64,000 bases of DNA from NCBI GenBank assembly GCA_964525675.1, contig CAZGJW010000001.1:40467-104466 (forward strand), written 5' to 3'. Position numbers and translations under genes: made by a program. The notes under the pieces were generated by a model. It made no database searches and was not told the origin of the DNA. It saw only the letters and a list, made by a program, of their open reading frames with translations. Shown piece by piece: positions 27,760-57,254 of this stretch. The stretch's first letter is position 1; each line of letters begins with the position of its first letter. Source of the stretch: an uncultured Spirochaetota bacterium (GTDB taxonomy: Bacteria > Spirochaetota > B62-G9 > DRHN01).

Positions 27760-28428
27760 TTAAACAGGGCAAATGTTGATTTTCACACCGTCAAAAAATG
27801 CTTCACACGCAGATATAGTACTACGATCGATCTTTTTCACCACAGGTATGTACGGGTCTTTGTCGATTCTGTCGTTCACAATCGGTTGCTCATTTTGAGT
27901 TGACTGCTTTTTTAAAAAAAAAGCTTTTTTAATTCTAATATTGTAAAAACTTGTTGAGCACCCTCCATCCCAGAGTCTGTACTGCACTTACCACATCACC
28001 TGTATTCGTTACCCTTTCAATGAGCTTTCCAAGGATGTTGAAACCGAGATTGCTGTATAAAAATATCCACGTGAACCGGAAAAGACCCGGCAATATTTCT
28101 TGAGGCTTCTGATATCGGTGTGTGAAAAAGGGCGATTGGATACAAGAATCCGGCAGGTATATCCTAGAGGAGCAAATATATTTTGAACGCTTTTACCAAG
28201 GGCAGTAATGATCTCTATTGAATATGCCGTCTTGACGATTCGAGAGAGGAGAGCAATTTGAAAACCGCTTCCAGTACCGATTTCAAGGACGACATCTGTC
28301 GGTTTGGGTTTTACTATCTGGGTCATATACGCCTGCCCGAGATAATCACTCAGAGCAGATCCGTATCCGATACCCCCAAAAGTCAAAAAGAAGAAAGTAA
28401 TGATGTCATTTCGAGGTCTTTCGGGCAA
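27760..28428 (-). pseudogene. decayed SAM-dependent methyltransferase (protein-L-isoaspartate O-methyltransferase-like) remnant
   Basis: VLEIGTGSGFQIALL is a SAM motif I, and it is preceded by a pcm-like YMTQ region. The reading frame breaks after about 110 aa and the continuation is found only as fragments in another ORF (27760-27987). Confidence 0.3.
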
Positions 28429-28506
28429 TACGTTTATATTCGAACCAGGACAAAATGATGATTATAACATCAAGTAAGGGTAACAATAATAAAAAGAAAG
28501 AACGGG

Positions 28507-28541
28507 TTTGACTAAATCTGAAAATTTGATAGACTATAAAC
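28507..28541 (+). promoter_or_regulatory. possible sigma70-type promoter for xfp (TTGACT - 17 nt - TAGACT)
   Basis: Sequence reading only. It lies about 200 nt upstream of the xfp ATG, whose RBS is AGGGAGG. Confidence 0.2.
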
Positions 28542-28741
28542 GACACCAGAGTAGAATCTGCAATAGGGTACGCCCATAATTTTCCACTAAGAGCCATTTA
28601 TGTACGAGCCTTTGTCGATATTGAATTGAAAATACGTTCAAACAGACGATGCTTGCGGCCATGAAGTTGTTGAGTGAAGAGAACAAGAAATGGATGATTA
28701 CAGAGACATTTCAGATCGAGTAAAGGATAGGGAGGCATACA

Positions 28742-31132: not shown

Positions 31133-31254
31133 AATTCTGGGGAACTGGAATGTTTGCCACCAGCAATTTTTTCAAATTGAACAGATTTTTGAGAAACATT
31201 GTTTTACCCTCTTTTTCAAAAAGAGACACCTTTTAATATTCTTCACCATGTAAC

Positions 31255-32142
31255 GTGGTGGCAACTGGCAGGGCCACTGAGTTCGGCAAAATATCGGAAC
31301 GGCTTAAATTAAGGGCGCCAGAAACGGAGTTCCAGCGCGGGGTGCGCCGCTTCGGAAACTTGCTCCTTGAGATAACACTTATGCTGGTCATTTCGATTTT
31401 CGCAATCAACGTATACCTTCACCGCCCTGTTTTGGAGTCCTTTCCCTTTTCCCTTGCCCTCGCTGTGGGACTCACACCACAGCTTCTGCCCGTTATAATC
31501 AGCATCAATCTCGCCCACGGGGCGAAACTTATGGCCCGAAAGCGGGTAATCGTCAAGCATCTACCGGCGATCGAGAACTTCGGAAACATGTTCAGCATGG
31601 CCGGTGCCTCGCTCTTCCTGCCCTTCCTTCCCCTTCTACCAAAGCAAATCCTGTTGACGAATCTGCTGACCGACGTTCCCGAAATGACCATCGCTGCAGA
31701 CCATGTCGATCCTGAAACCGTTAAAAAACCGAGACGGTGGGATATCAGGTTTATACGCAGATTCATGCTCACCTTCGGTGTGCTCAGCTCGGCTTTCGAC
31801 TACGCGACATTCGCCGTGCTGCTTCTGTTGCTTCACGCATCAACTGAGCAGTTCAGGGCGGGGTGGTTCATCGAGTCGGTGGTATCCGCAACCCTCATTG
31901 TGCCGGTTATCAGAACGCCGAAGATTTGCCTCAAAGGCCGTCCTCACATGTCACTCGTCATTGCTACCCTGATCATTGCTGCAGTAATTCCATACAGCCC
32001 GCTTGCGAGGATTTTCTCTTTCCAGAAGGTTCCTCCTGTCTTCCTCCTCGCCGTCGGCTGTATCATTAGTACATATGTCGTTGCTGTTGAACTGGTGAAA
32101 AAACTATTCTATAAAACTGTACAGGTTAAGGCGCTTGACTAG
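31255..32142 (+). pseudogene. mgtA: remnant of Mg2+-importing P-type ATPase (MgtA-like): missing the N-terminal third and carrying a clean in-frame deletion of the whole P/N catalytic domains
   Basis: TEFGKI (end of the A-domain), TM3, and TM4 with LAVGLTPQLLP...KRVIVKHLPAIENFGNM are joined directly to FLPFLPLLPKQILLTNLL...KKPRRWD...RFML, which is the MgtA C-terminal TM bundle. There is no DKTGT or GDGxND. An in-frame stop lies 24 nt upstream of the GTG start. Confidence 0.6.
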
Positions 32143-34720: not shown

Positions 34721-34747
34721 TGTCGTGATTGAGGCTAAGGTGTACTG

Positions 34748-35155
34748 TCACGCTTTGAAGAACATGCGTACCTTGGCGGCTATCTGCCGGTCGGTCATCT
34801 TATCCGCCCTTTGGACACCTTTTACACGGCTGCCAAGTTCCTTCGATCTATGGATATGTTTCTCCAATTCCTCTTTTGCCTCCCCGGGCCCGAAGATCAG
34901 GATCGACTCAGCATCACGCAGGAATTCAGTCACCGATTCATAGTATGCATCCAGATGATGTTGGTATTTTCTGTCCACTTTACCCTCTGCCGCCACATCC
35001 TGCGGACCGTAAGGAGTTGAGGATCTCGACCCGCCGGCAAGCCGAACATGTTTCCCGATGTCCGATTTGACGATTTGGTTCCGCTCCGTACCTTTTTCGA
35101 GTATCACAAGAACCGCTTTTCTATGATCAATCCATATACCTACCTTTTCCCCCAT
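34748..35155 (-). CDS. hypothetical cytoplasmic protein (135 aa)
   Basis: Complete ORF with RBS-like GGAGG upstream. No motif I can recognise. Confidence 0.4.
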   Translation of the reverse strand: MGEKVGIWIDHRKAVLVILEKGTERNQIVKSDIGKHVRLAGGSRSSTPYGPQDVAAEGKVDRKYQHHLDAYYESVTEFLRDAESILIFGPGEAKEELEKHIHRSKELGSRVKGVQRADKMTDRQIAAKVRMFFKA

Positions 35156-35469
35156 GGTAGAATCCCTCCTGTGTTACGTCTATTCCTGCTGTCGATATAC
35201 TTTCCCGATTACCGGCAGATCTCGATACTTTTTATGGCTCAGTCGTTTCACGGAGCTCATCCCTGCAAGCGTTTCTATGAGATGCAGGTACCGACTCGAA
35301 TACCGCAGCAGTTTTCCTCTGGCTATTTGGGTTTCTTCACCTTAACATAGAACCCCCCTTTCAGATATAAAAAAATGTCGCCCGTGTGGGCTGCATGTTA
35401 TTCAGCCGATTTCGGCATTTCAAAATGTGTTTGCTGACAATGCGATATTGCCAGAGATAGGCTTAAATA

Positions 35470-35625
35470 TAGGTAAGTAAACTTATCAATCTTAGAAGTT
35501 GAAAATTATCACTTACCTGATGGTTTTTACCTAAAGTATGTAATATTACGGCAATGTAGTATAATATAGTCATTTGTATTCGAAATTCTGGTACAAAATG
35601 CCAGAATTCTAATGGATAAAACCAT
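35470..35625. repeat. structured ~157-bp repeat element, copy A; it contains the palindrome AATTCTGGTACAAAATGCCAGAATT and the inner inverted repeat AGGTAAGT/ACTTACCT
   Basis: About 98% identical to the reverse complement of 48779-48935. A diverged same-orientation copy lies at 38672-38786. Confidence 0.8.
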
Positions 35626-35660
35626 AGCTGAATAGTTACGTTTTTTATTAACTTTTAAGG

Positions 35661-36428
35661 ATGAAACATGGTAATAATAAGAAACAAATTCATCATGAAG
35701 GAGGTTTGATTGTGAAACGGTCGATACTAATTGTTACGGTTTTACTGATCACAGCTTTTTTACTCGTCGGCTGCGTTTCCACCAAGAAGTTCGAAAAACT
35801 CGAGTCAGACAACGCACGCATCAAGTCTGAAAACGCAACTCTCAAAAAGGACCTTGATCGGGCACATGCCCGGATAGCCGAGCATGAACAGCAGATCGCC
35901 ACGCTTCAGAAGGAACAGGAACAGGAAGTTGTAGCGCTGAAACAGACCTACGATAATCTCATCGGTGAGCTGAAGAAAGAGATCGACAGCGGGGAAATCC
36001 AGGTCCAGCAGATCAAAGGACGCCTGCAACTGACAGTTGCGGAACGCCTGTTCTTCGATACCGGCAAGGCTGAGATAAAGTCGGAGGGACAGGCTGTGCT
36101 GCGCCGTATCGGGCCAATCCTAAAAAAGATACCCGAGAAGAATATCAGGGTCGAGGGCCATACCGACAATGTGCCGATCGGAAAGTCACTGCGTGGGCAA
36201 TATTCAAGTAACTGGGAGCTTGGAGCAGCACGGGCGGTCAATGTGGTGCGTTTTCTGCAAAATGAGTCGGGTATCGATCCCCTGCGCCTGAGCGCGGTCT
36301 CCTACGGCCAGTACCGTCCCATCGCAACGAACAGGACCAAACAGGGACAGTCAAAAAACAGACGAATCGAGATCATACTGATCGACAGGGATCTGGACCT
36401 GGCGAAGAAGATGCGACAGAACCTCTAA
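35661..36428 (+). CDS. OmpA/MotB-family peptidoglycan-associated lipoprotein with an N-terminal coiled coil
   Basis: LVGCVS lipobox. The OmpA_C domain is present (RVEGHTDNVPIG...NRRIEI). The RBS is AAGGA. Confidence 0.75.
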   Translation: MKHGNNKKQIHHEGGLIVKRSILIVTVLLITAFLLVGCVSTKKFEKLESDNARIKSENATLKKDLDRAHARIAEHEQQIATLQKEQEQEVVALKQTYDNLIGELKKEIDSGEIQVQQIKGRLQLTVAERLFFDTGKAEIKSEGQAVLRRIGPILKKIPEKNIRVEGHTDNVPIGKSLRGQYSSNWELGAARAVNVVRFLQNESGIDPLRLSAVSYGQYRPIATNRTKQGQSKNRRIEIILIDRDLDLAKKMRQNL

Positions 36429-36459
36429 GACATTTTACCATAACAGAAGCTCATGCTCA

Positions 36460-37638
36460 TCAGAGCGACTTCTCGAGATTGAAGAGGGATGTACGAAAAT
36501 AGAGGATGGGCTTATTTCCGCTCTGGAGCCCCCGGGCTATGAAGAGCTCAGTTTTGAAATGGCTGTTTTTCTGCCCGGAGAGTACAAAGGAAAACCCTGC
36601 ACCAAGGCTTGCGAGATAGTGAAGATCGGACTTCAAACCGATGCTTTCCTGATAGAGAAGCGAATCGATAAGCAGTTTCAGCCTGAACTGGTGAATTCTG
36701 AGGCGGTTTTTCAAAAGAGTGAGCTCTCTATCTCTGAACAGCTCGTGTTCAGTATCGACTGTGAAAAGGTTGAAGCTGAATGCGTTGATTGATCTATTCT
36801 CATATCCCCGAATGGTGTCGAAGCCGCCGAGCTCGTAATAACCTGCAAGCTTCTTTTCCCAGATTGCGATTGGATAGTCGAGTGTCCCCCTGAGAATGAA
36901 AAACCAGCTACTCCGGATATTGCAGTGGTATAGAAGCTGATTCTCGTTACGCATGTCAACCGGTGTGTCGAAGCCATCCCGAAACCGTGCCTTGAAGACC
37001 GTGCGGTAATTGAGGCCTTTGAAGTAGAGCTTGTTCGTTGGATCGAGCGCCCTCACACCGTCGTATATGAAGCTGAGCTTGGGCACCAGATCGAAACCAT
37101 CCTCGAGGACCCGTGCTTCGGTCAGGCTCCCCTTGAACACATCGTCAAGCAGGAATGCAGGCTCCAGGTACAGCTTGGGAGCCAGACGATAGCCAATCCC
37201 CACTTCAAAGCCCCTGTTGCGCTCTATATATTTGTCTGTGGGAACGAGCACGATGTCCGAACCGCTTATCCCCGGCGCTACCAGATTCTCGAAGTCCGTG
37301 CTCTGAAAAAATTTTAGATAGGGCCGGAAGCGTTTGATATTATAGGCAAATATAAGCTCGCTGTTGATATTGCTTGAGATAATGCCGTAGCCCAGATAAA
37401 AGATGAGATCCAGTCTATTGAAGGGTTGTGTGAATGAGAGCGTCACATTGCCGCTTGGAAGGACAAGATCGAGAGACGGACTCACCTGTGCTCGCACCTC
37501 TGAATATTTCACATTCAGCTTCTTAGCCTCTTCAGTCTTCGGTTCATCACTCACTTTTTCTTCGGCTGCCACCCTGGTTCCAAAGAAAGAAATCATGGCA
37601 ATGAAAAGAAAAGACAATGATACGATGCGTGTTTTCAT
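36460..37638 (-). CDS. putative outer-membrane beta-barrel protein
   Basis: A signal peptide follows the ATG at 37638. The sequence shows an alternating hydrophobic pattern and is rich in Y/F/G. It sits in an envelope-gene context. Confidence 0.45.
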   Translation of the reverse strand: MKTRIVSLSFLFIAMISFFGTRVAAEEKVSDEPKTEEAKKLNVKYSEVRAQVSPSLDLVLPSGNVTLSFTQPFNRLDLIFYLGYGIISSNINSELIFAYNIKRFRPYLKFFQSTDFENLVAPGISGSDIVLVPTDKYIERNRGFEVGIGYRLAPKLYLEPAFLLDDVFKGSLTEARVLEDGFDLVPKLSFIYDGVRALDPTNKLYFKGLNYRTVFKARFRDGFDTPVDMRNENQLLYHCNIRSSWFFILRGTLDYPIAIWEKKLAGYYELGGFDTIRGYENRSINAFSFNLFTVDTEHELFRDRELTLLKNRLRIHQFRLKLLIDSLLYQESIGLKSDLHYLASLGAGFSFVLSGQKNSHFKTELFIARGLQSGNKPILYFRTSLFNLEKSL

Positions 37639-37787
37639 AAACCAATTCCCATGTGAAACAAAAGGCATTACGGTATAAAAAGATCTATCAGTCTTCAACT
37701 TAAAATTGCCGCCGGTACTGAATTTCAGTATACTTCTATATCGTACATTCTTGCAAATATTTCGTAATGCACTGAAAGGAGGACTGT

Positions 37788-38033
37788 ATGAAGTTCGTTA
37801 TTGGCATCATCATCGGTATTCTCGTTATCGTTTTCATGGTACAGAACGTAGAGGTCATTGATATAACCTTCCTTGCATGGACCATGCATCTGCCCCGTGC
37901 AATCATGATCCTGATTGTTTTCGTGCTTGGCATCTGCGTTGGGTATGTCGCACGAGGTGTTCGCACCCGAAAGAAGGAGAAGAAAGAAGAGCTCGAAGAC
38001 CTGAAAGAATCTGCAAAGGACGCGCGGAAATAA
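37788..38033 (+). CDS. LapA-like small inner-membrane protein (DUF1049)
   Basis: 81 aa, two TM helices, a Lys/Glu-rich tail, and a strong RBS (AAAGGAGG). Confidence 0.5.
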   Translation: MKFVIGIIIGILVIVFMVQNVEVIDITFLAWTMHLPRAIMILIVFVLGICVGYVARGVRTRKKEKKEELEDLKESAKDARK

Positions 38034-38671
38034 CAAAGAGTCGCTCTATAACTGCCTCTTGATAGATGTGCAATTTTCCTGTTATTTTGCAGGAAGCTTT
38101 TTACGCAACCTCTGCGCTATGTTCCTTTCAATGAGTATGATCTCGGCTCTCCTGTTCTTTGCCAATATCTAACTCAAGGATATTGTGTATCTTTTTTTTC
38201 AGCACGTTTGAGCATTCGTAACTATTCATTTCTCTTTCAAAACGTCTTTTCAAACCTAAAGAGTGATGTTTTTAAAATAGAAGGGCAAACTTGAAGTCAG
38301 GGAAGTGAATACTTTCTATTCATCATTACCTTGTTCATCCTTAGGTCGTTCCATGATTAAATCCTCACCCGCCTGTTTTGTTTCACTAATCTTTTGCTCA
38401 AGTTCTGCTTTATCATTCTTAAGTGATTTTACAGTCTTCTTGAGTCTTCTATTTTTAAATATGATAAAAATACAGGACAAATTACTATACTTCGAGGTAT
38501 AAACCATAGCAATTGGCGTCTTTCTTACAGGTAAAGCTAAAAGCAACAGTAAAAGAAATTATTTATGGTTTTATCCTTCTTCTGCTGCTCTTCAGTTCTG
38601 AGTACCTTCCCACTTCTGCAGCCTTCAAAAATAGGCAAGTGAACTTCCAAACGTAAAAGGTTCAAATCGAC

Positions 38672-38786
38672 ACTTGCCTAATGGTTTTTACCTATAGAAT
38701 GCAATGATAGGTAATTGTAACATAATAAGTCAGTTGAGCATCAAAATTCTGGTACAAAAAACCAGAATTTTGATGGATAAAACCAT
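38672..38786. repeat. diverged partial copy B of the repeat element (same orientation as copy A)
   Basis: It shares AATGGTTTTTACCT...AAATTCTGGTACAAAAAACCAGAATTTTGATGGATAAAACCAT with copy A at about 75% identity. Confidence 0.6.
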
Positions 38787-38980
38787 AATTTTAATATTCA
38801 CGAAATGAAAACCGGCCTTCTCATTAACATTCTACCCGGAACAGAACATTTAATCAACAAAGAAGTTATTCGGACGCTTCGCGTCCGAATAATGCCGCCG
38901 GTGAGCAGCGATACGAAGACGCATTTCTTCCGAATAGTTCAACTAATTGTAAACCATTTTTTCTCAAAAGGAAAAATCTC

Positions 38981-39250
38981 TTGACTGATATGCTCAGAAT
39001 ATACACATTAATACATATAATACTATGTATCAGAGCCTTCAAGGAGACCAAGATGAGAACCACATTAAATATAGACGACACACTGATTGAAAGAGCATCC
39101 AAATTAACAGGGATAAAGGAAAAAACGTCTCTGGTAAAACGCGGTTTGGAATCGTTGATTGCTCTTGAAAGCAGCAAAAGACTTTCACAATTGGGGGGTA
39201 GTGAAAAAAAACTGAATCCTGTTCCCCGAAGAAGAACATCGGGTGAATGA
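38981..39250 (+). CDS. vapB: type II antitoxin, VapB/ribbon-helix-helix-like
   Basis: MRTTLNIDDTLIERASKL start. 89 aa. The stop overlaps the vapC start. Confidence 0.6.
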   Translation: MTDMLRIYTLIHIILCIRAFKETKMRTTLNIDDTLIERASKLTGIKEKTSLVKRGLESLIALESSKRLSQLGGSEKKLNPVPRRRTSGE

Positions 39251-39620
39251 TATGGTTCTGGTCGATACATCTGTCTGGATATCCCACCTGCGCACTGGCG
39301 AGCCTGATCTTGAGATTCTCCTCAACAACGGGAATGTTATCTGTCATTTGTTTATAATCGGAGAACTTGCCTGCGGCAATCTGAAGAACCGGTCTGAGAT
39401 TCTTTCACTTCTCCAGGCGCTCCCCCGGGCCGAATGTGCCGGTGATGAAGAGGTCCTGTACTTTATCGAAAAAAACCATCTTACGGGCAGGGGAATAGGA
39501 TATATTGACGCTCATCTGCTCGCTTCCGCGGTGCTGACTGACGCCCCGATATGGACCTTCGACGTACAGTTACAGAAGGCAGCATCTAATTTAGGTTTGA
39601 GCGCAGGGACCCATGAATAA
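39243..39620 (+). CDS. vapC: type II toxin VapC (PIN-domain ribonuclease)
   Basis: MVLVDTSVWISHLR with conserved PIN acidic residues. 125 aa. Confidence 0.75.
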   Translation: MNDMVLVDTSVWISHLRTGEPDLEILLNNGNVICHLFIIGELACGNLKNRSEILSLLQALPRAECAGDEEVLYFIEKNHLTGRGIGYIDAHLLASAVLTDAPIWTFDVQLQKAASNLGLSAGTHE

Positions 39621-40869
39621 AAAAGATATACCCCCCTACTTTTCTACAGGTGAAAAAGGCTCCTTTGCAGAAAAAACCCTTCAATGGAGAAAACCCTCCA
39701 TAGTGGACAGGGTCATCAAGGCGAATAGTTTCAACCATAGCCAGAAAAAGGCGCTTATATCTCTTAAAAATGAGATAACGGCAGGCAGGATTACAAATCC
39801 CTTCAACGACCCCGCAGTTCACATCGATACGATGGAGGAAAAATCTCTTTCCATCTGGAGGCGTGAGGTTTCCCGCTATGAGGGGGGATCGTGGCTCGAT
39901 ATCCCCTTCTATTTCGCCGAGGCTTACTTCTACATGAGAATTCTCATTGCAGTCGGATACTTCGACATGACATCATCCTTTCATATGAAAGACCCGTACA
40001 GGCCGTTCAAAGAACGGGAGCTCTATGAAGAAAACGGCGGGCTCGAGTTAGGAAGAACACTCGTCGGGCTTTTGGAGGATCGTCTCTTTGAAACCGGGCG
40101 CCCTATCAAAGAGAAAAAGAAGGAGCTTAAATCCATCCTCTATTACGAGCTCTGGGGCAACCGGGTCGATTTGAGTCTCTACTATATTGCAGACGATTCG
40201 AGGGAAAAAACCTCGGAACATGAGTCGCATAACCTTCTCATCGATCACAGCGAGCGGCTCATCGATCTTCTGGGCATGGCGGGCAGGCGGATCGACATCA
40301 TATTAGACAACTCGGGGCAGGAACTGGTGTGTGACCTGATTCTCACATGGTATCTTCTTGCGACCTCACCCGAAAGAAAAATCCATCTCCATGCGAAAAA
40401 ATACCCATTCTACGTGTCTGATGCGATGGCAAATGATGTCCTGGAGACCATCAGTGCGCTTCGGGCCGACAGAGACGAGGCACTGTCTCGTATCGGGCAA
40501 GAGCTTTTCGGGTTTCAGGAGCAGGGGAGGCTTTTTCTGCACGACCATTACTTCTGGAACAGCCCCCTTGGGTACGACCAGCTGCCGGAAGGCATCTCAC
40601 AGGAGCTTGCGCTATCTGACATGGTTCTTCTCAAGGGAGACGTAAACTACAGGAGGATGCTTTCAGACAGGAAGTGGGAGATGTCGCGAAACATGGAAGA
40701 ACTGACCGGGGTTTTCCCCACATCATTTACGCTTATCCGAACCATGAAGAGCGAATGCATCGTTGATATTGACAACTACAGGGCACAGGAACTTTTTATA
40801 AAGGACCCCGACTGGCTCGTAAACGGGGTTCGCGGTATTATCAGGGTGGTCGAAAAGAGCCGGGTATGA
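39613..40869 (+). CDS. DUF89/ARMT1-like protein (damage-control phosphatase family)
   Basis: IILDNSGQELVCDLILTWYLL fits the DUF89 DNxGxE...D metal-site pattern. 418 aa. Confidence 0.5.
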   Translation: MNKKDIPPYFSTGEKGSFAEKTLQWRKPSIVDRVIKANSFNHSQKKALISLKNEITAGRITNPFNDPAVHIDTMEEKSLSIWRREVSRYEGGSWLDIPFYFAEAYFYMRILIAVGYFDMTSSFHMKDPYRPFKERELYEENGGLELGRTLVGLLEDRLFETGRPIKEKKKELKSILYYELWGNRVDLSLYYIADDSREKTSEHESHNLLIDHSERLIDLLGMAGRRIDIILDNSGQELVCDLILTWYLLATSPERKIHLHAKKYPFYVSDAMANDVLETISALRADRDEALSRIGQELFGFQEQGRLFLHDHYFWNSPLGYDQLPEGISQELALSDMVLLKGDVNYRRMLSDRKWEMSRNMEELTGVFPTSFTLIRTMKSECIVDIDNYRAQELFIKDPDWLVNGVRGIIRVVEKSRV

Positions 40870-41043
40870 GGTTTTGTACACCGTACTTCGATTAAACAGA
40901 CATTTATTTCTAACGTACAGAGCTCTCTCAAGTCGATTCTCGGGTTGATTAGACCTTTCAGCCGGCTACACCCCGTTTAAACAACTGCATTCATTGACAC
41001 ATGGTAGTTTCAAAACTATCTTAAAAAAGGGGGGGATGCTTCT

Positions 41044-41334
41044 TTGAGCCTGTACCGCGTACACTTCAAGTGGAAAGATAAGGAGATGCAGCTTACCGCA
41101 AAAAGCCTTGATCTCACACACCCCTACTTCGTCTCGATAAAGGATATCGTCTTCCCTGAAGAAAAAAAGCTCATTATAAACCCTTCCGAGGACGACTTTC
41201 GAAAGACATTCAGCGAAGCGAACCACCTCATGATCCCCTTCCAATCGGTCGTTCTGATAGAGGAGCTTCCCGAAAAGGGGAAACCCAGAGTCATGAAGTT
41301 TGAAAAAGTTGAAAAGGATAAAAAGAACAAATAA
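41044..41334 (+). CDS. hypothetical small protein (96 aa)
   Basis: Complete ORF upstream of the first MttB paralog. No motif I can recognise. Confidence 0.3.
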   Translation: MSLYRVHFKWKDKEMQLTAKSLDLTHPYFVSIKDIVFPEEKKLIINPSEDDFRKTFSEANHLMIPFQSVVLIEELPEKGKPRVMKFEKVEKDKKNK

Positions 41335-41383
41335 AAATTTCGTAAGAATAACATAAAACTCCCTCGTATAAGGAGGCTATGTA

Positions 41384-42892
41384 ATGGCGCTTCGCGGATA
41401 TATGAGAAAGTTCCCTCCGTTCAAGATCCTGTCCGACGATCAGGTCGAGCATATCCATCACGGTACGCTCGATGTGCTTGCCGAATCAGGTGCAAAAATC
41501 TATCATGATGAGGCATTAAAGGTTTTCAAGAAGGCAGGCTGCAACGTCGATTTCGAGACAAAGCTGGTAAAGTTTCCGCCCGCGCTTGTGGAGGAGAGCC
41601 TGCGTAACTGCCCGGGCAGTTTTCGCGTAAAATCAAGAAATCCTGCGCACGATCTCATTCTCAGTCAGGACCATGTGGTGTTTTTCAACTTTCCGGGAAG
41701 AGACATCGTCGACCTCGACACCTGGGAATCACGGCCACCGACGAGGCAAGAGCATATAGATCTCGTCCGTGTTCTGGATTTTCTGCCGACCGTTCATTTT
41801 CTCAACAACTACCCCTACTTCGGATACAGGGGTATACCTGAGACCATGAAAGAGATGGAAGGGGCCGCCATCCGACTTGCGTATTCAACCAAGGTAACCA
41901 TGGAGATAGCAAACAATGACAATGACCGCTTTACCTTTCAGGCAGCCAAAGCCCTGGGGACCGAGATGTTCGCAAACCCGAACACCTCATCCCCCCTCAC
42001 CTGCTACACAGACCAGACGAACGCATGCTTCCTCGCAGCAGAACATGGCTTTCCAAGCATGATATGGGACGGTGCAACAGCCGGAAGCACCGCACCGGCG
42101 AGCATTGCAGGCGCCGTAGTTATGAGTAATGCAGAGATAATCCCATATATCGTGCTCCTCCAGCTTTTGAAACCCGGTTCCCGCGTTGCCGTTGCCAACC
42201 TTGTGCTCCCTCAGAACATGAAAACAGGAGCGCCCGCCTTCGGCGATATCGGCGTCAGCCTACACACCGCCGCCTACAACCAGGTATGGCGGTATTACGG
42301 AGTCCCTACGGTCGCCTCTTCTTCCGGCGTGAGTAATTCGAAGATGATAGGGTTTCAGCTCGCATATGAAAAGACTATACCAAGCCTTATCGGCGCAATG
42401 TCCGGTTCGAGCGCGGTGCAGCTGCACAGCAGTGTATATGGCGAAATAAGCGCTCATCCTGTTCAGGCTGTTCTCGATGATGATATTGCGGGCATGATAG
42501 GAAGATTTGTCCAGGGCATCGAGGTAAGCGAGGACTCCCTTGCAGTTGATCTTATGAATGAAGTGGGTCCCATACCGGGCCATTTCCTCGGCAAGGCGCA
42601 CACCCGACAATGGTGGGAAAAAGAGCAGTACGTTACGAAAAGTACAGACCGAGTCTCTTATCCGGAATGGGTCATCAGCGGGAAAAAAACCGCGGTTGAT
42701 TACGGAAAAGAGCGTGTCGAAGAAATCCTTGCAACCCATACAGTAGACCCTCCCCTGACCGATAAGGAGACAGAGGGGGTTGGGCGAATTCTCAGGGAGG
42801 CACGGCAGTACTATAAAAAGCATGAGCTTATATCAGATGCGGAATGGGAGGAGTATAAAAAAACCCTGAAAGAGGAAGGGCGGCCGTTTTAG
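41384..42892 (+). CDS. MttB-superfamily methyltransferase (trimethylamine/quaternary-amine:corrinoid methyltransferase family), non-pyrrolysine type
   Basis: 502 aa. Family-wide N-terminal K(F/L)(P/K)PxxILSxEQxEHIHxGTLxVLxxTG and TIM-barrel body. No in-frame amber codon. The RBS is AAGGAGG. Confidence 0.85.
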   Translation: MALRGYMRKFPPFKILSDDQVEHIHHGTLDVLAESGAKIYHDEALKVFKKAGCNVDFETKLVKFPPALVEESLRNCPGSFRVKSRNPAHDLILSQDHVVFFNFPGRDIVDLDTWESRPPTRQEHIDLVRVLDFLPTVHFLNNYPYFGYRGIPETMKEMEGAAIRLAYSTKVTMEIANNDNDRFTFQAAKALGTEMFANPNTSSPLTCYTDQTNACFLAAEHGFPSMIWDGATAGSTAPASIAGAVVMSNAEIIPYIVLLQLLKPGSRVAVANLVLPQNMKTGAPAFGDIGVSLHTAAYNQVWRYYGVPTVASSSGVSNSKMIGFQLAYEKTIPSLIGAMSGSSAVQLHSSVYGEISAHPVQAVLDDDIAGMIGRFVQGIEVSEDSLAVDLMNEVGPIPGHFLGKAHTRQWWEKEQYVTKSTDRVSYPEWVISGKKTAVDYGKERVEEILATHTVDPPLTDKETEGVGRILREARQYYKKHELISDAEWEEYKKTLKEEGRPF

Positions 42893-42993
42893 GATCATCC
42901 TGAATGTAATCGTGAGCACCCGTGGGGAAACAACAGGAACAGACCGCAGCCAATAGCTGTGATATATGATATGGAGAGGAAGGTGGTGTAAAG

Positions 42994-44445
42994 ATGTCTA
43001 TAAAAGGTTTTTCGAGGAATTTCAAACCGCTACAGATTCTTTCTGAAGAACAGGTTGAAGATATCCACCGAGGTGTTCTCGCAGTTTTGCAGAATACAGG
43101 GCTGAGATTTGAAAGCAAGCTGGCGCTTAAAACCTTCGAAAAAAATGACTGCTCAGTAGACTATGAGGAGATGAGGGTAAAATTTCCGCCTGGGCTCGTT
43201 GAGGAATGCCTTCGAAAAACACCGAGCAGTTTCTACTTTAAATCAAGAGACCCCTCATGCGATCTGATTGTCGGCGGCAACACAACCTACTTCTGCTCTT
43301 TCCCGGGGATGAACACCGTTGACCTCAATACCTGGGAGGCGCGAAGGGCGACAAGAGAGGAAAACAAAGAGGCCCTCATTGTACTTGATGCCCTTGAAAA
43401 CCTCCATTTTTTAACTCCCTACACGCCCTATTTCGGCTTTGATTCCACTCCTCCAGTGATGTCCATACCGGAAAGCACTGCGGCAAAGATCAAATATACA
43501 ACAAAGCTGCAGTTTTCCGGGTACCAGAAAGATTGTGAAATCTTCACGATAGAAATGGCGAATGCTGCGAATACCGAAATTCAGGGGATGATGGAAAGCT
43601 CACCTCCTCTCACCTTTTATGAAGACGCGGCCATGTCTGCCTACCGGTATGCCAAGGCAGGCCTTCCGCTCCATATCACCTCAGGGGCTATCATGGGTGG
43701 GACGTCACCTGCAACCATTGCCGGCACACTCGTCACCAGTGTCGCGGAAATCGCAGGAGGTATTGTGTTCGTACAGCTTGTCAGGCCAAATACGAGAGTC
43801 ATTGCAAATGCCTTCGTTTTTCCCCAAAACATGATGACCGGCCTGCCCTTCTTCGGGTCAGTGGGCATCTCACTTCACGAAGCGGCCTTTAATCAGATAT
43901 GGCGAAAGTACGGCATTCCTGTGCAGAGCTCGGCGATCGGGCCTACGAATTCGAAGATGATTGACTACCAGAACTGTTATGAAAAGTCGATCCCTGCGCT
44001 GACCGCTGCAATGTCCGGAGCCCACATAATACAGTTCCACGGCGGCGTGTACGGCGAATTGACGTATCATCCTGTTCAGTCAATTATGGATGATGATGTT
44101 GCGGGGGTTATCGGTCGTCTTATCGAGGGATTTGAAGTATCGGATGAAACACTGGCCATAGATCTTATCAAAGAAACAGGGCCGATACCGGGCTTTTATT
44201 TAAATACCGCACATACAAGAAACTGGTGGAAAAAGGAACAGTTCGTCCCCAGGGTGGCGGATCTCCTTCCCTACGGGCAGTGGGAAGCCGGGGGAAAAAA
44301 ATCTGCTCTCGACAGGGCAAAAGAACGGATGAAAGAGATAGTTGAAACTCACAGGCCTGTTCCCCTGTCTGATGAACAGGAGAGAGAGATTGATAATATT
44401 CTGGAAAAAGCCAGAAACTACTACAGAAAAAAGGGGTGGCTCTGA
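42994..44445 (+). CDS. MttB-superfamily methyltransferase paralog 2 (non-Pyl)
   Basis: 483 aa. The same conserved blocks as 41384-42892 (for example HPVQxxxDDDxAGxIGR, GPIPGxxLxxxHTRxWWKKEQ). Confidence 0.85.
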   Translation: MSIKGFSRNFKPLQILSEEQVEDIHRGVLAVLQNTGLRFESKLALKTFEKNDCSVDYEEMRVKFPPGLVEECLRKTPSSFYFKSRDPSCDLIVGGNTTYFCSFPGMNTVDLNTWEARRATREENKEALIVLDALENLHFLTPYTPYFGFDSTPPVMSIPESTAAKIKYTTKLQFSGYQKDCEIFTIEMANAANTEIQGMMESSPPLTFYEDAAMSAYRYAKAGLPLHITSGAIMGGTSPATIAGTLVTSVAEIAGGIVFVQLVRPNTRVIANAFVFPQNMMTGLPFFGSVGISLHEAAFNQIWRKYGIPVQSSAIGPTNSKMIDYQNCYEKSIPALTAAMSGAHIIQFHGGVYGELTYHPVQSIMDDDVAGVIGRLIEGFEVSDETLAIDLIKETGPIPGFYLNTAHTRNWWKKEQFVPRVADLLPYGQWEAGGKKSALDRAKERMKEIVETHRPVPLSDEQEREIDNILEKARNYYRKKGWL

Positions 44446-44468
44446 ATTTTTATTCAAAGGCATGGTAC

Positions 44469-44789
44469 ATGGAACTTTTTGAAGAAATCACTCACGCTCG
44501 TAAAATCCTTGGAGTGGCGGAGTCAGCCACCCTGAAACAGATTCAAAAAAATTATAGAGACCTGGTCAAGAAATGGCATCCCGATCGATGCCGGGAAAAA
44601 AAAGAAATATGCAGGGAAAAAACCTCTTTGATTCTGCAGGCGTATAAAACCATAAGAGACTACTGCAATAATTACCGCTTTACTTTTTCCCGGGAGGAGA
44701 TAGAAAAATATATGCCGGATGAAGAGGTCTGGATAAAAAAATACGGAAGCGACCCCATCTGGGGGAGGCACCATCCGGGGAACAAATGA
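44469..44789 (+). CDS. small J-domain (DnaJ-like) protein
   Basis: ARKILGVAESATLKQIQKNYRDLVKKWHPDR carries the HPD motif. I moved the start to the ATG at 44469; the longer ORF begins inside the mttB paralog 2 stop region. Confidence 0.45.
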   Translation: MELFEEITHARKILGVAESATLKQIQKNYRDLVKKWHPDRCREKKEICREKTSLILQAYKTIRDYCNNYRFTFSREEIEKYMPDEEVWIKKYGSDPIWGRHHPGNK

Positions 44790-44940
44790 GAAGTAATTTC
44801 TGCCAAGCGATGTGTGTAACCATGCTCGAATCAATAATCGTGAGGGGTATTATTTTTTCAGTCTTTACACCATATCTATAAATCAAAGTGTGTGTTAATG
44901 TATGGTAAAATATTTAAATATATAACCGGAGGGACCTATA

Positions 44941-45594
44941 ATGGATGATGAAACCAAGACAATTCTTGAAAATCTGAGAAAGGCTGTCTTCGAGTACGAC
45001 AACGATCTGGCTGCTAAGTCGGCCACGCAGTCAGTTGAAAAAGAAATCGACCCGCTCGAAGCCCTCGATGTAATGACCACAGCCATCAGAGAAATTGGAG
45101 ATGCCTTTGGAACAGGGGAACTCTGGCTCCCCGATCTCGTCGGTGCATCCGATGCAATGCAGTCGGCGGTGCCAATACTGGAAAAAGAGATCAAAAAGAG
45201 GGGCGCGCATAGAGAGTCTCTGGGAAGAGTTGTAGCAGGCACGGTATTCGGCGATATTCACAGCATAGGAAAGACCATGGTGGCCACCCTCCTCACTGCT
45301 GCGGGATTCGAGGTGCATGACCTGGGTGTAAATGTAAATGCGAAAGGCTTTATAGATGCAGTGAGCAAGTACAATGCCAACCTGGTTGTTATGTCAGCGC
45401 TTATGACCACAACATGTGTTGAGCAGGAAAAGGTGGTTGCAGAATTAAAGAAGGAGGGGTTGAGGGAGAAGGTTAAGATCATGGTAGGAGGAGCTGCCGT
45501 TACCGAGGAATTTGCCGAGACGATCGGTGCTGACGGGTATGATCCGACTGCGCCGGGCGCTGTCGCCCTGGCAAAGAAGCTGCTGGGAAAATAG
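44941..45594 (+). CDS. corrinoid (cobalamin-binding) protein, MtbC/MttC-like
   Basis: A B12-binding_2 helical cap followed by a Rossmann B12-binding domain with a DxHxxG motif (GDIHSIGK). 217 aa. Confidence 0.85.
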   Translation: MDDETKTILENLRKAVFEYDNDLAAKSATQSVEKEIDPLEALDVMTTAIREIGDAFGTGELWLPDLVGASDAMQSAVPILEKEIKKRGAHRESLGRVVAGTVFGDIHSIGKTMVATLLTAAGFEVHDLGVNVNAKGFIDAVSKYNANLVVMSALMTTTCVEQEKVVAELKKEGLREKVKIMVGGAAVTEEFAETIGADGYDPTAPGAVALAKKLLGK

Positions 45595-45624
45595 GTATGT
45601 TGTGGTCCATAAGGAGATTTTATT

Positions 45625-47136
45625 ATGGCAATAAAAGGATATACACGAAATTTCCCCCCTTTAAAAATCCTGAGCGATGAACAGATAGAGCAAATTCATA
45701 CCGGCACATTGAAAGTGCTTAAAAAGACAGGTGTGCGGTTTGACAGCGAAAGAGCGTTAAAGCTTTTTGAAAAAAACAGGTGCACCGTTGACTACGGCAG
45801 CAACAGGGTGCGGTTTCCCGAGGCATTAGTGGAGGAATCGTTACGGAGCTGCCCGAGCAGGTTCCATGTACAGGCAAGAAATCATGAAAATGACATGGTC
45901 TGGGGTGGTAATACAACATATTTTCAGGCCCTGGCCGGCACAAGGACGGTTGATCTTGATACATGGAATCCTCGAACGCCCACGAGAAAAGAGTACTATA
46001 ATGGAATTACTGTTCTCGATGCACTGGAAAATGTGAGTATTATTCCATGGTACACACCATGGTTCGGGTTCAAGAATATCCCGCCTGTTATGGCCATGCC
46101 TGAAGGCCTTGCCGCACGATTGAGGAACTCAAGTAAATTTACATGCGCCGGTTATTCTATGGGGTGTGAGGTGTTTAATATACAAATGGCTCAAGCTGCC
46201 GGTACAGAGCTGAGAACCATGATGGCCGCCTCCCCTCCACTGACTTTTTATGATGAGACGATCGATGCTGCCTACAGGATCATAGAAGCCGGGTTTATCC
46301 TTCTCCCGACTTCCGGATGTGTGTACGGCGGCACTGCTCCTGCTACAATTGCTGGCTCATTAATAAGCGGGAATGCTGAAATCATTGCAGGAATAATATT
46401 TGCCCAGCTCATCAAACCGGGAACGAGAATAATAGTACAGGATTTTTCCTTTCCGCAGAACATGAGAACAGGCGCTCCTGCGTTCGGGTCAATTGAAATT
46501 TCAATGCACCAGGCAGCATTTAACCAGATCTGGCACTGGTATGGAGTCCCCACAGACGGAGCGGTATGCTATCCCAATTCAAAAATGATAGATTATCAAT
46601 CAGGGTACGAAAAAGCTATTATTGCTTCGATAGGAGCGCTGTCCGGCACAAATACAATATGGATTCAGGGTGCACTGTATGGTGAGCTCGCCTTTCATCC
46701 TGTGCAGGCAATAATCGATGATGATATTGCAGGTATGCTCGGAAGGTTCCTGGGGGGTGTTAACGTCACCGAGGAGACCATGGCAAAAGACGTCATCGAT
46801 GAGGTGGGGCCTATCCCGGGTCATTATCTCAATACAAAACATACCAGGAAGTGGTGGAAAAAAGAGCAGTTTATTCCAAAATCAGCCGACAGATTAACGC
46901 ATCCGGAATGGTTAAAAACGGGTAAAAAAGACTGTATTGAGCTCGCCAGGGAAAAATATGAAGAGATATGTGAGACGCACAGGGTAAATCCCCCGCTGAC
47001 TGAACATCAGGAACAGGACATAGAAAAAATCCTGAAAGAAGCGCGGGAACACTATAGAAAAAAGGGGCTCATTTCTGATGCTGAATGGGAATACTATCAG
47101 AAGGATATTGCATCCACCGGCTATCCATATGAATAG
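45625..47136 (+). CDS. MttB-superfamily methyltransferase paralog 3 (non-Pyl)
   Basis: 503 aa. The same conserved blocks and no in-frame stop. Confidence 0.85.
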   Translation: MAIKGYTRNFPPLKILSDEQIEQIHTGTLKVLKKTGVRFDSERALKLFEKNRCTVDYGSNRVRFPEALVEESLRSCPSRFHVQARNHENDMVWGGNTTYFQALAGTRTVDLDTWNPRTPTRKEYYNGITVLDALENVSIIPWYTPWFGFKNIPPVMAMPEGLAARLRNSSKFTCAGYSMGCEVFNIQMAQAAGTELRTMMAASPPLTFYDETIDAAYRIIEAGFILLPTSGCVYGGTAPATIAGSLISGNAEIIAGIIFAQLIKPGTRIIVQDFSFPQNMRTGAPAFGSIEISMHQAAFNQIWHWYGVPTDGAVCYPNSKMIDYQSGYEKAIIASIGALSGTNTIWIQGALYGELAFHPVQAIIDDDIAGMLGRFLGGVNVTEETMAKDVIDEVGPIPGHYLNTKHTRKWWKKEQFIPKSADRLTHPEWLKTGKKDCIELAREKYEEICETHRVNPPLTEHQEQDIEKILKEAREHYRKKGLISDAEWEYYQKDIASTGYPYE

Positions 47137-47195
47137 AAGCTTATTCATTTCAAACGAACCCTGCCTCAAGGTTATGCGAAAGGATTATTCTGTAG

Positions 47196-47945
47196 ATGGG
47201 TTTATCAAGCTCTATTATCGAACGAATGTCTGAACCTGCAGAAAACTACACCATAAAACGAGTGCAGGCAGGCCTCATATATTCCGCAGTTCAGCTCGAT
47301 AACAACGCCGCCGGCGTTGCCTACACCTTCCCGATGAAAGAGCACTGCAGTCCCGGAATGCGCCGCGACCAAAAACCACTGACAGGAAGAAAGGCCGTTG
47401 AGCTGATCCCTTATCTGGGAGATAAGAACCTGGTAATGTCCTCTCTCGCACTCGCAGCGATAAACGCCCTGCTTGCAACAGAAGAGATTCCTGAAGGTGT
47501 GAGTTTCGGGGATATTCTGGGCAACCTCGATATTCGGAAAGGGGATCAGGTCTGCATGGTGGGAAGCTTTCTGCCGCTTCTTCCCGCTCTGGAGAAGAGG
47601 CATGTTCGAGTCGTTGCTGTTGATGAAACACCAAAGCCTCATACAGGGCCGCCTGAAGATGCTGAAAAGCTTCTTCCCGAAAGTCAGGTTGCCATCATTA
47701 CCGGTACAGCAGTTATCAACAACACAATTGACCGCATGCTGGTGCTTGCCCGAACCTGCCGTGAGGTCGCCGTGCTTGGAGCTTCCACCCCATTGCTGAA
47801 AGAGGCGTTTGTCGACACTTCGGCAACCTGCCTTTCGGGAATCAGAGTGACGGAGCCTGAAAAGGTGCTTCAGACAATAGGCGAGGGATTAGGGTTCAGA
47901 GAGTTCAAAAAATATGTTCGCAAAGTAAACCTGAGGCTCAAATAA
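47196..47945 (+). CDS. DUF364/DUF4213-like Rossmann-fold protein (putative cofactor/metal-handling protein associated with corrinoid systems)
   Basis: 249 aa. A glycine-rich Rossmann-like core. Positioned between mttB paralog 3 and the TsaA-like gene. Confidence 0.45.
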   Translation: MGLSSSIIERMSEPAENYTIKRVQAGLIYSAVQLDNNAAGVAYTFPMKEHCSPGMRRDQKPLTGRKAVELIPYLGDKNLVMSSLALAAINALLATEEIPEGVSFGDILGNLDIRKGDQVCMVGSFLPLLPALEKRHVRVVAVDETPKPHTGPPEDAEKLLPESQVAIITGTAVINNTIDRMLVLARTCREVAVLGASTPLLKEAFVDTSATCLSGIRVTEPEKVLQTIGEGLGFREFKKYVRKVNLRLK

Positions 47946-47981
47946 AATTACTTTGATACAACAGGCAAAGGGAAAAAGTAT

Positions 47982-48773
47982 ATGGACGGCGCTGAAGAAA
48001 CTCTGTTAAATGGTGAGAAAATAAAATCCCTGCTGCTGTACTTGCTGAGTCATAATAAAGAGCATCTGAAGGAAAACGAGAAATGGGTGAAGATGATTCA
48101 GCAGGCCGGTTTCGAAGAAATTGCCCATACGATCAAAGAAATCAATACATTGACAGAGACAGCCAATCAGCACCTTGAATACGCTAAAAAAAAACTCGAG
48201 GATAGTAGCGGAAAGTGCCAACCAGCAGTTAAGGAAAAGAAAAAAAATGATGTAATCCTAGAGACGCAGCATACTGAAAAACCTGCTCTTTTTGAATTCA
48301 GGCAGATCGGAACCATACATACTCCCTATACCGATAACGCGCCGTACCAGCCGGTTGAAGAGGATCAGGGAACATTTTCTGTAGAGCTTTTTCAACAGTA
48401 TACCGACGGCCTCGCTGAGTTAAACCGATTCTCTTACATGTATGTACTCTATTACGTACACAAACTACAGCGGAAACCCGCTATGATGACATCTCCTCCG
48501 TGGGCCCACGGCAAAACTGTCGGCGTGTTCGCAAGCCGTTCCCCTGTACGGCCAAACCTCATAGGACTGAGTATTGTTCGTATAAAACGGATCGTGGAAA
48601 ACAAAATATACACGTCGGGACTTGATGTGTTTGATGGTACACCGCTCCTCGATATCAAGCCCTATATAAAAGATCTCGATTCGAAGGATGACGCTGATTA
48701 CGGCTGGATTGAAGATTTGAAAGGGTATGAACATTTGCTTTTGCATATCAAAGGCATACCTCACGAGTATTGA
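47982..48773 (+). CDS. TsaA/YaeB (TrmO)-like SAM-dependent methyltransferase with an extra N-terminal ~100 aa
   Basis: The C-terminal 160 aa (GTIHTPY...RPNLIGLSIVRI...GTPLLDIKPY) match the TrmO beta-barrel family. Confidence 0.65.
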   Translation: MDGAEETLLNGEKIKSLLLYLLSHNKEHLKENEKWVKMIQQAGFEEIAHTIKEINTLTETANQHLEYAKKKLEDSSGKCQPAVKEKKKNDVILETQHTEKPALFEFRQIGTIHTPYTDNAPYQPVEEDQGTFSVELFQQYTDGLAELNRFSYMYVLYYVHKLQRKPAMMTSPPWAHGKTVGVFASRSPVRPNLIGLSIVRIKRIVENKIYTSGLDVFDGTPLLDIKPYIKDLDSKDDADYGWIEDLKGYEHLLLHIKGIPHEY

Positions 48774-48778
48774 GAAGT

Positions 48779-48935
48779 ATGGTTTTATCCATTAGAATTC
48801 TGGCATTTTGTACCAGAATTTCGAATACAAATGACTATATTATACTACATTGCCGTAATATTACATACTTTAGGTAAAAACCATTAGGTAAGTGATAATT
48901 TTCAACTTCTAAGATTGACAAGTTTACTTACCTAT
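48779..48935. repeat. repeat element copy C (inverted orientation relative to copy A)
   Basis: Reverse complement of 35470-35625 with only 2-3 mismatches. Confidence 0.8.
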
Positions 48936-48985
48936 TTATTTGTATTGTCATTAAATTTTATTCAACAGTAAAGGAACCATGCACA

Positions 48986-49615
48986 ATGAACAGTCATACA
49001 TCATTTAAAGGATACTCCTTGGTATCCTGCGGGACATTGCGTGATGAAGTAGAGTATTTGGAAAAAACAGGCTTTTTGGATGCGGATAAGGTATTATTTA
49101 CAGCACCCGGCCTGCATGAAAAGCAGAAGGAACTACAAAAACAGCTTGTAAGGCAGCTTGAAAACGCAAGAAAATACTCCGAGAAAGTAATCGTACTGTA
49201 CGGGGAGAGATGCTATCTCGATCCGGACGATCCTTCAAGAGACATAAACCGACTCCTCGCGGAAAACGGACCCGATCTTTCACAGGTGCACGCCAAAAAC
49301 TGCATAGATATGCTTGCGGACGAGGATGAGAGGGAAGAAATTCGAAACGGGAGAAAGATATACTGGCTTACGCCAGGGTGGGTAAAATACTGGAAGATAA
49401 TTTTCAGTAAATGGGATGTCGGTATGGCAAATGAAACCTTTCCCGGGAATGATTCAGCAATCGTGCTGGACGCAATCGGCTCCTTTGATGAAATTTGCGA
49501 AAAGGAGCCCGAAAAGATACTTGAATTCTCAGACTGGATGAAACTCGGCATTGAATCACATCAAGTGACCTTAGACCGGTTTAAAGAACTTCTGCTGGAG
49601 CAGATCAACCAATAA
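48986..49615 (+). CDS. DUF1638-like protein (family recurrently adjacent to corrinoid methyltransferase genes)
   Basis: 209 aa. This assignment comes from overall resemblance only. Confidence 0.4.
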   Translation: MNSHTSFKGYSLVSCGTLRDEVEYLEKTGFLDADKVLFTAPGLHEKQKELQKQLVRQLENARKYSEKVIVLYGERCYLDPDDPSRDINRLLAENGPDLSQVHAKNCIDMLADEDEREEIRNGRKIYWLTPGWVKYWKIIFSKWDVGMANETFPGNDSAIVLDAIGSFDEICEKEPEKILEFSDWMKLGIESHQVTLDRFKELLLEQINQ

Positions 49616-56513: not shown

Positions 56514-57254
56514 TCTTTAAACCGCCTCTTTTTTTCAGATAAGCCGAACGATAAAAAATTATTCGAATCGTGCTGTGAAATTAAGGAATGTACCGGTATT
56601 GAACCAGCGGTGTCACTATTGAAGGTTTTTTTAAGGGGTTATTATTTTAGAGAGGATATTGCCATTTCATAGTATCAGTGCTGATATCATCGACTAAACT
56701 AAACTACCCAACCCTTCACGTAATGAAAACGAGTTAATAAAAACCATCCGGCTTAACGCGCTTTTACCGCATCAAAAAAAACACTTCACACCTTATTCTC
56801 ATAACATCCTATATAAGCTGTGATTCATTACGATAAAAGTCAATGAATATTGTTTTATCAATATGAATATCGGTGTGCCGACGAAAACTTTACCGGTGTC
56901 AGACCCCATAGAAAACTTATAATATCCTGTCAGTGGTTATACGTCCGTGTAAAGTTCCGGAATGGATCCTTTTTCTGAAGCGTTTACGGTATTGTGGCTT
57001 CTATTTGAAATAAAGATACCAAGACTCACGAGAAGGGTGAGTGCGGCAAAGAATACGAGCACTCTGATTATCACTTCCCTGTCACCTCCCGCGTTATATA
57101 TTGTATGGTGTATACATTTATTTTCGTTACACATCAATGAAGAGTTGATCGTTTTTTTCCACTACTGTAGTTCGTTCGGCAGTACACTTTATATTATGCA
57201 CCATGTGGAGGGTTGTGTCAAATAATTATCAGTAATTATGGTCAATCACTCCCG

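Follow-up and report, generated by a model that had tools for sequence, protein, structure and literature searches.

A dispersed non-coding repeat, very probably a non-autonomous mobile element, in intergenic DNA of an uncultured Spirochaetota lineage

The DNA analysed here, called the window throughout, is a stretch of 64,000 nucleotides of contig CAZGJW010000001.1 from an uncultured Spirochaetota bacterium. It carries three copies, A, B and C, of a short intergenic repeat. The outer two, A and C, bracket about 13 kb of DNA with three envelope-related genes, a vapBC toxin-antitoxin pair and most of a corrinoid methyltransferase cluster, while B lies inside this segment. An earlier note, made from the sequence alone, had drawn attention to the outer pair as near-identical inverted repeats and had offered a mobile element, a regulatory operator or an invertible segment as explanations. 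The analysis described below indicates that the three repeats are very probably copies of a small, non-coding and non-autonomous mobile element that resides in the intergenic DNA of an uncultured Spirochaetota lineage.

Three copies of one repeat

A repeat search of the window returned A and C as inverted arms of 158 nt each with 99% complementarity. Direct comparison located the two mismatches at 35485 (A/G) and 35519 (G/A), which confirmed the near-identity and the inverted arrangement of the outer copies. The gene content of the bracketed segment was likewise as described, judged by Pfam scans and gene calls; gene order was derived from Pfam scans together with gene calls on identical public contigs. 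Copy B proved to be real and diverged. Yet the extent of 38672 to 38786 proposed for it was too short, and over its full length of 157 nt it is about 73% identical to A. Copy A is flanked by a minus-strand open reading frame (ORF) of 135 aa on one side and the gene of an OmpA-like lipoprotein on the other. Copy C is oriented antisense within the 212-nt spacer that separates a TrmO-like gene from a DUF1638 gene. The element has a G+C content of 28% versus 49% for the genome. Its hairpin motif TTCTGG-N9-CCAGAA was found three times in the window, which is above chance given 0.16 matches expected from shuffled sequence. The coordinates of the copies and their neighbours are collected in Table 1.

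The element is composed of two foldback modules, each closed by a short inverted repeat of its own, that moved jointly as one unit. Its layout reads ATA-(GGYAAGT...ACTTRCC)-TAAT-(GGTTTTTACC...TTCTGG-N9-CCAGAA...GGATAAAACC)-ATA, with outer ends of ATAGGYAAGT... on the 5' side and ...GGATAAAACCATA on the 3' side. Module 1 has the general form AGGYAAGT(G)...(C)ACTTRCCT, with a loop of about 30 nt between the arms; the stem is AGGTAAGT/ACTTACCT in copy A, whereas other subfamilies have AGGCAAGT/ACTTGCCT. In module 2 the closing repeat is formed by ATGGTTTTTACC and GGATAAAACCAT. Between them lie a variable centre, missing from short forms, and the conserved hairpin AATTCTGG-TACAAAA(N2)-CCAGAATT. 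One hairpin starts 2 nt from the 5' boundary of the element, and 18 nt separate the end of the conserved hairpin from the 3' boundary, the inverted repeats being internal to each module. All sub-motifs quoted in the earlier note, i.e. AGGTAAGT/ACTTACCT, AATTCTGG-N9-CCAGAATT and ATGGATAAAACCAT, were present in copy A. The element contains no ORF and has no coding capacity. Inspection by eye for a binding site of integration host factor and for terminal inverted repeats gave no convincing match.

Table 1. Positions in the window of the repeat copies, their parts and the neighbouring genes
Feature	Position	Strand	Remarks
Copy A	35469..35626	+	158 nt, full length; youngest subfamily; form ATA-GG...CC-ATA
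5' foldback module, copy A	35471..35518	+	AGGTAAGT 35471-35478, ACTTACCT 35511-35518; loop ~32 nt
3' module, copy A	35520..35626	+	inverted 12-mers ATGGTTTTTACC 35520-35531 and GGATAAAACCAT 35614-35625
Conserved hairpin, copy A	35584-35608	+	AATTCTGG-TACAAAATG-CCAGAATT
Motif ATGGATAAAACCAT, copy A	35612-35625	+	
Copy B	38631..38787	+	157 nt, full length; older subfamily; ~73% identical to A; upstream of vapB
Copy C	48778..48935	-	158 nt, full length; youngest subfamily; 2 mismatches to A
Short relic like the 3' end of the element (AAGGATAAAACCAT)	38565..38578	-	opposite orientation, ~50 bp upstream of copy B
Empty target site	57095..57097	-	single ATA; the orthologous contig L043/L055 holds a full element there
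MprF	32135-34720	+	
135-aa ORF	between MprF and copy A	-	
OmpA-like lipoprotein	35661-36428	+	
392-aa protein	36520-37698	-	no Pfam match in precomputed gene calls; between OmpA-like and LapA-domain genes
LapA-domain protein	37788-38033	+	followed by copy B
VapB, PIN-domain protein, ARMT1-like protein	after copy B		head of the methyltransferase gene string
Three MttB-family methyltransferases and one corrinoid protein, then DUF364	downstream of the ARMT1-like gene		
TrmO-like protein	47982-48773	+	followed by copy C
DUF1638	48986-49615	+	

A dispersed family with filled and empty sites

Further copies were collected with an exact pattern in a scan of one genome per species, with a second pattern in metagenome contigs and finally with a profile search (nhmmer) of all loci. 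The exact pattern detected the element in three metagenome-assembled genomes (MAGs) of Spirochaetota. The copies in these MAGs were homologous over the whole element with 72-86% identity, and homology ended at the element borders with unrelated flanks. The second pattern yielded 68 stretches with the element. The profile search gave 127 matches that reduced to 75 full-length copies with distinct flanks, a number that is no per-genome count as the copies were drawn from metagenome contigs of several related populations. The tetranucleotide composition of the locus was indistinguishable from that of the window for 42 of these copies. No match to the element was detected in viral contigs scanned with two patterns or in plasmid and phage collections searched by blastn.

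The copies measured 125-220 bp with a mode of 158 bp. By pairwise identities a young cluster that includes A and C comprises 25 copies at 97% identity or more and 28 at 93% or more. Another 11 copies form a second subfamily of about 170 nt; there are further, smaller subfamilies, among them that of copy B, and short forms of 125-130 nt without the central part. Truncated, decayed and subfamily-chimeric copies are also present. Four head-to-tail tandems were found (L046 7598-7912, L057 9083-9400, L064 2-198 and L022 2892-3123), in which the junction reads ...AAAACC-ATA-GGYAAGT... with one ATA common to both members. The members of the L046 tandem are reciprocal chimeras of A-type and B-type subfamilies, a sign that copies have recombined with each other. 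Because A and C both belong to the young subfamily of about 25 near-identical copies, their near-identity needs no local explanation. We infer that A and C are independent recent insertions that by chance came to lie 13 kb apart in opposite orientations, and that B is an older insertion.

Two observations on the family stand apart. Locus L045 (1391-1443, minus strand) carries a lone 5' module of the young subfamily (ATAGGTAAGT...CACTTACCTAAT), immediately after which come ATA and unrelated DNA. It looks as though the 3' module had been precisely removed or the 5' module were able to stand alone. Furthermore, L021, L024, L034, L047 and other loci of about 40% G+C carry young copies with 97% identity or more to A and C, on contigs of 39-41% G+C with a tetranucleotide correlation of 0.6-0.7 to the window (49% G+C). 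The element may have spread between different organisms, or these loci may be atypical genome regions.

All copies are intergenic, i.e. they lie between ORFs. In the MAGs the element was found antisense between flgD and flgE, downstream of spoVG, divergent from ackA and near ptsI; ABC transporters, MTHFR and regulators were among the other neighbours. In the frame of the element both flanking genes were co-directional in 22 cases, both antisense in 19, divergent in 19 and convergent in seven. This mixed orientation excludes an obligatory role as a leader, promoter or terminator and matches that of dispersed mobile repeats.

Insertion was examined by joining both flanks of each copy and matching them against the other loci. 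This search yielded three pairs of filled and empty alleles with flanks about 89-95% identical, i.e. a presence/absence polymorphism. L001 is filled between flgD and flgE, while the corresponding empty site of L039 reads ...TTACT-ATA-AGT.... Conversely, L039 is filled with a young copy at a site where L001, L036 and L050 are empty and read ...CCAAATA-ATA-ATT.... In the third pair L043/L055 are filled and the window itself is empty, with flanks about 89-92% identical (Table 1). In all three pairs the occupied allele has the form flank-ATA-[GG...CC]-ATA-flank, while the empty allele has one ATA. Across 69 copies ATA was nearly invariant at both ends, the left flank showing it in 67-69 of them. 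The four bases to the left of ATA are A or T, with A at position -4 in 61 of the 69, and on the other side the adjacent base is A in 51. This makes for an asymmetric, A/T-rich target. The element inserts at an ATA within intergenic sequence rich in A/T and may point either way with respect to genes. A young copy, L087, is preceded by TTA and followed by ATA, a pattern that a 2-bp TA duplication would account for.

Clean empty sites for A and C were not found in relatives; the two loci are rearranged in related MAGs, that of C in L091 and that of A in L099. The relative MAG CAZFTJ01 (L099 2230-2720), with shared genes 94-95% identical, is without about 7.7 kb of the window (27497-35166) that encodes an XFP phosphoketolase, a truncated cation ATPase, MprF and the 135-aa ORF. 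L099 carries, where these genes would lie, the 3' part of a tRNA gene, and the window is without tRNA. In L099 the OmpA-like gene is a 39-bp remnant and copy A is absent. The difference looks like an island-type insertion or deletion. In the related MAG CAYSRJ01 (L091 2660-4000 versus window 48547-48985, about 86% identical) only the 90-aa DUF8180 part of the TrmO-like gene is left, and about 1.3 kb with an antisense fragment of MoCoBD_2, a molybdopterin-enzyme domain, precedes DUF1638. There is no copy of the element.

Some features of the window itself were recorded in passing. The ORF of 295 aa at 31255-32142 abuts MprF and corresponds to the C-terminal part of a P-type cation ATPase only (partial E1-E2_ATPase and Cation_ATPase_C); it is probably a gene fragment. 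Three paralogous genes for methyltransferases of the MttB superfamily at 41384-47136 have in common a conserved stretch of 71 nt, as seen in the repeat search. They are clustered with genes for one corrinoid protein, DUF364, the TrmO-like protein and DUF1638, and vapBC and the ARMT1-like gene stand at the head of the cluster. Two minus-strand genes, at 12309-13805 and 5706-7190, encode proteins of 498 and 494 aa without Pfam match in precomputed gene calls. At 22306-22385 a 24-bp unit (CGCTTGTACCACGGGCACCCGCTT) is present three times in tandem with 81-100% identity.

Inversion, regulation and RNA function

The earlier note had considered an inversion between the outer repeats. If A and C were sites of such an event, programmed or RecA-mediated, the envelope, vapBC and methyltransferase genes would be flipped between two orientations. 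Two inverted repeats of 158 bp with two differences and 13.1 kb apart are a possible substrate for homologous recombination, and the chimeric and tandem copies show that members of the family do recombine. Yet the identity of A and C turned out to be a property of the family, common to about 25 other copies at unrelated loci. There was no recombinase domain among the genes of 29-59 kb, and a flip would shift no gene relative to an evident promoter. Moreover, every contig that spans a junction had the orientation of the window: the junction at A (135-aa ORF, A, OmpA-like gene) is spanned by L014 and L016, and that at C (TrmO-like gene, C, DUF1638) by L005, L006/L018 and L007. These contigs derive from three samples (3300031257, 3300032062 and 3300031255) and are assembled, so minority orientations could escape. 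Contig L008 was 99.985% identical to the window over 20.4 kb, i.e. the same strain is present in several public assemblies, and JGI samples 3300031257, 3300032062 and 3300031698 contain this spirochaete population; shorter contigs ended within the repeat, as expected for a repeated sequence. As copies recombine, an inversion between A and C is conceivable as a rare event, while nothing supports a programmed one. We consider an invertible segment very improbable. An equally small likelihood is assigned to the second proposal of the earlier note, that the palindromes form an operator by which a dimeric regulator co-regulates the envelope, toxin-antitoxin and methyltransferase genes. The palindromes AATTCTGG-N9-CCAGAATT and ATGGTTTTTACC with GGATAAAACCAT are perfect and strongly conserved, and A and B each precede genes of their own strand. 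On the other hand, conservation spans the whole 158 bp and not only a site of 20-30 bp, and the 75 copies adjoin functionally unrelated genes (flgD/flgE, spoVG, ackA, ABC transporters, MTHFR, regulators). Copies occur in both orientations, between convergent genes and inside operons, there are tandem duplicates, and the same loci in relatives with flanks about 89-95% identical are without the element.

The fold of the element led to a further alternative, namely a functional RNA such as a small RNA gene, a cis-acting leader or a processing signal with a conserved structure. In single-strand folding against shuffled controls the RNA of the plus strand reached -38.5 kcal/mol with a z-score of -4.9, the RNA of the minus strand a z-score of -3.4 and DNA a z-score of -3.1. 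Isolated double changes were seen, i.e. T-A versus C-G in the stem of module 1 between subfamilies (AGGTAAGT/ACTTACCT versus AGGCAAGT/ACTTGCCT) and one copy in which the TTCTGG/CCAGAA stem is compensated to TTATGG/CCATAA. Among other bacterial repeats, ERIC and Correia elements act on mRNA stability (PMC3184786). Yet covariation across 30 diverse copies, a check that the earlier note had suggested, did not exceed column shuffles: 81.3% paired versus 80.8%, and a score of 0.062 versus 0.057, which 52 of 500 shuffles attained. With RNAalifold, 62 distinct copies gave the invariant closing stem only. Because the predicted pairs are no better supported than in column shuffles, the stems are kept by sequence conservation, as expected for DNA inverted repeats. 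Rfam had no match in the whole window at gathering thresholds and only chance-level matches to copy A at E<=10. Scans of 35000-39400 for sigma-70 promoters and intrinsic terminators gave no site inside A and one weak minus-strand match in B. The copies show no preferred orientation relative to genes. Taken together, a functional RNA is improbable, though somewhat less so than inversion or an operator.

Mode of movement and relation to known elements

The proposal of the earlier note that did hold in essence was that of an element resembling a MITE (miniature inverted-repeat transposable element). The repeat is mobile, with dozens of copies (75 sites) and insertion polymorphism, and what it lacks is terminal inverted repeats. 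A search for such repeats of at least 10-15 bp was negative: GGYAAGTRAACTT at the 5' end and GGTTTTATCCATT, which is the 3' end in reverse complement, have only GG(T) in common. Target-site duplications are compatible with the ATA data but not decided by them: ATA on both sides and a single ATA in the empty site fit a TA or ATA duplication and equally an insertion beside ATA by an element that ends in ATA.

The non-autonomous element would be moved by an enzyme encoded elsewhere in the genome. We favor an enzyme that treats the two ends differently and would join them at the short ATA core, because the termini share only GG/CC, hairpins lie close to both ends, ATA is fixed on both sides but single in empty sites, the target is asymmetric (A-rich on both sides) and the tandems share one ATA; this is the least certain step of the proposal. 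Such an enzyme could be a single-strand HUH transposase as in IS200/IS605 or a serine recombinase as in IS607. A classical DDE transposase with a 2-3 bp TA/ATA duplication would rank below both, and it is more likely that the repeat is not a classical element of terminal inverted repeats and DDE transposase. Effects on neighbouring genes would be a by-product of insertion, e.g. by a stable foldback in the transcript between the TrmO-like and DUF1638 genes or upstream of the OmpA-like gene.

Several points weigh against the mobile-element interpretation or against parts of it. Besides the missing terminal repeats, the ambiguity of the ATA data and the origin of the 75 copies from several populations, no transposase or recombinase partner was found in the gene calls of the window or in about 830 kb of related loci, the search space being loci that carry the element. 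Models (hidden Markov models) of the 5' and 3' half-elements detected no pair of ends enclosing a gene. All-against-all megablast found no repeated segment of 350 bp or more in the 830 kb, clustering of 832 ORFs found no multi-copy transposase-like protein, and Pfam assigned only ordinary metabolic, transport and regulatory functions to genes between close copy pairs. As no transposase was found, the route of movement is one that we infer. In addition, the orientation bias with GC skew expected for IS200/IS605-type insertion was not seen (40:28, p=0.18; a weak test, as skew is noisy on short contigs), and A and C are opposite in orientation on one contig. The fixed sequence of 3 nt also speaks against the HUH option, as known targets of IS200/IS605 elements are 4-5 nt.

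Correia, RUP and ERIC elements have terminal inverted repeats of 10-26 bp that are recognised by one DDE transposase. The spirochaete element resembles the Correia repeats (CREE) of Neisseria, RUP of Streptococcus pneumoniae and ERIC of enterobacteria in being 100-160 bp long, non-coding and intergenic in either orientation, with dozens of copies per lineage. Further common traits are subfamilies, foldback capacity, presence/absence polymorphism in close strains and, at both termini, a motif that contains T-A; for the known repeats these properties, including TA at both ERIC-type termini, have been described (PMC3184786). In contrast, the termini of the spirochaete element share only GG...CC, its inverted repeats are internal to two modules, and no sequence similarity was seen. 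With strict MITEs it has in common that it is small (50-800 bp), non-coding, multi-copy and mobile. Unlike these, it has no terminal inverted repeats, which are part of the definition (PMC11602168), and no autonomous relative with the same ends was found among element-carrying loci. Because it failed the test for terminal inverted repeats, it was not filed as a strict MITE. Spirochaetes are unusually rich in MITE-type repeats, a census reporting about 145 per genome in Leptospira, Sediminispirochaeta and Treponema (PMC11602168).

Elements derived from IS200/IS605, i.e. palindrome-associated transposable elements and REP/BIME with RAYT, share with the spirochaete element the lack of terminal inverted repeats, hairpins near both ends and an asymmetric target. 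Their insertion 3' of a short fixed sequence without need of a duplication is compatible with the ATA data, which equally fit a duplication. They differ in that no Y1 HUH transposase or TnpB was found near the copies, which show no orientation bias with GC skew, and in the unusually large loop of about 30 nt of the 5' hairpin. The IS607 family, too, is without terminal inverted repeats, has an identical, very short core at either side of the insert and is not very selective about its target; the tandems show a CC-ATA-GG junction like that of a circle. Yet the known core of IS607 is GG while that of the spirochaete element is ATA, and no serine recombinase was found. We know of no non-autonomous IS607 derivatives of this kind. 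BOX of Streptococcus pneumoniae and the bcr repeats of the Bacillus cereus group are similar as modular, dispersed intergenic repeats of about 150 bp with stable predicted folds and no known transposase. Their sequences are unrelated and their module structure is different, and the filled and empty ATA alleles of the spirochaete element are the more direct evidence of insertion. There is also a slight chance of an undescribed route by which small bacterial repeats are mobilised, e.g. by a trans-acting recombinase that would join the two unlike ends through a core of 3 nt, ATA. In that case the strictly conserved ATGGTTTTTACCT, TTCTGG-TACAAAA-CCAGAA hairpin and TAATGGATAAAACC might not be ordinary binding sites for a transposase but provide a structured cofactor of RNA or single-strand DNA, comparable to those of ωRNA or bridge-RNA systems.

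Thus we favor the view that the 13-kb segment is neither a switch nor a regulon but ordinary chromosome with three insertions of a dispersed repeat. The element is an ordinary genome parasite; unusual are the structure of its ends and a partner enzyme that was not found in the loci searched. The repeats explain assembly breaks at the positions of copies and point to places of possible rearrangement between relatives. The family is a clean case of a bacterial repeat with direct evidence of mobility, i.e. filled and empty alleles, a young burst, tandems and chimeras, and yet without terminal inverted repeats. The mobilising enzyme, once identified, would reveal the transposition chemistry behind such elements.

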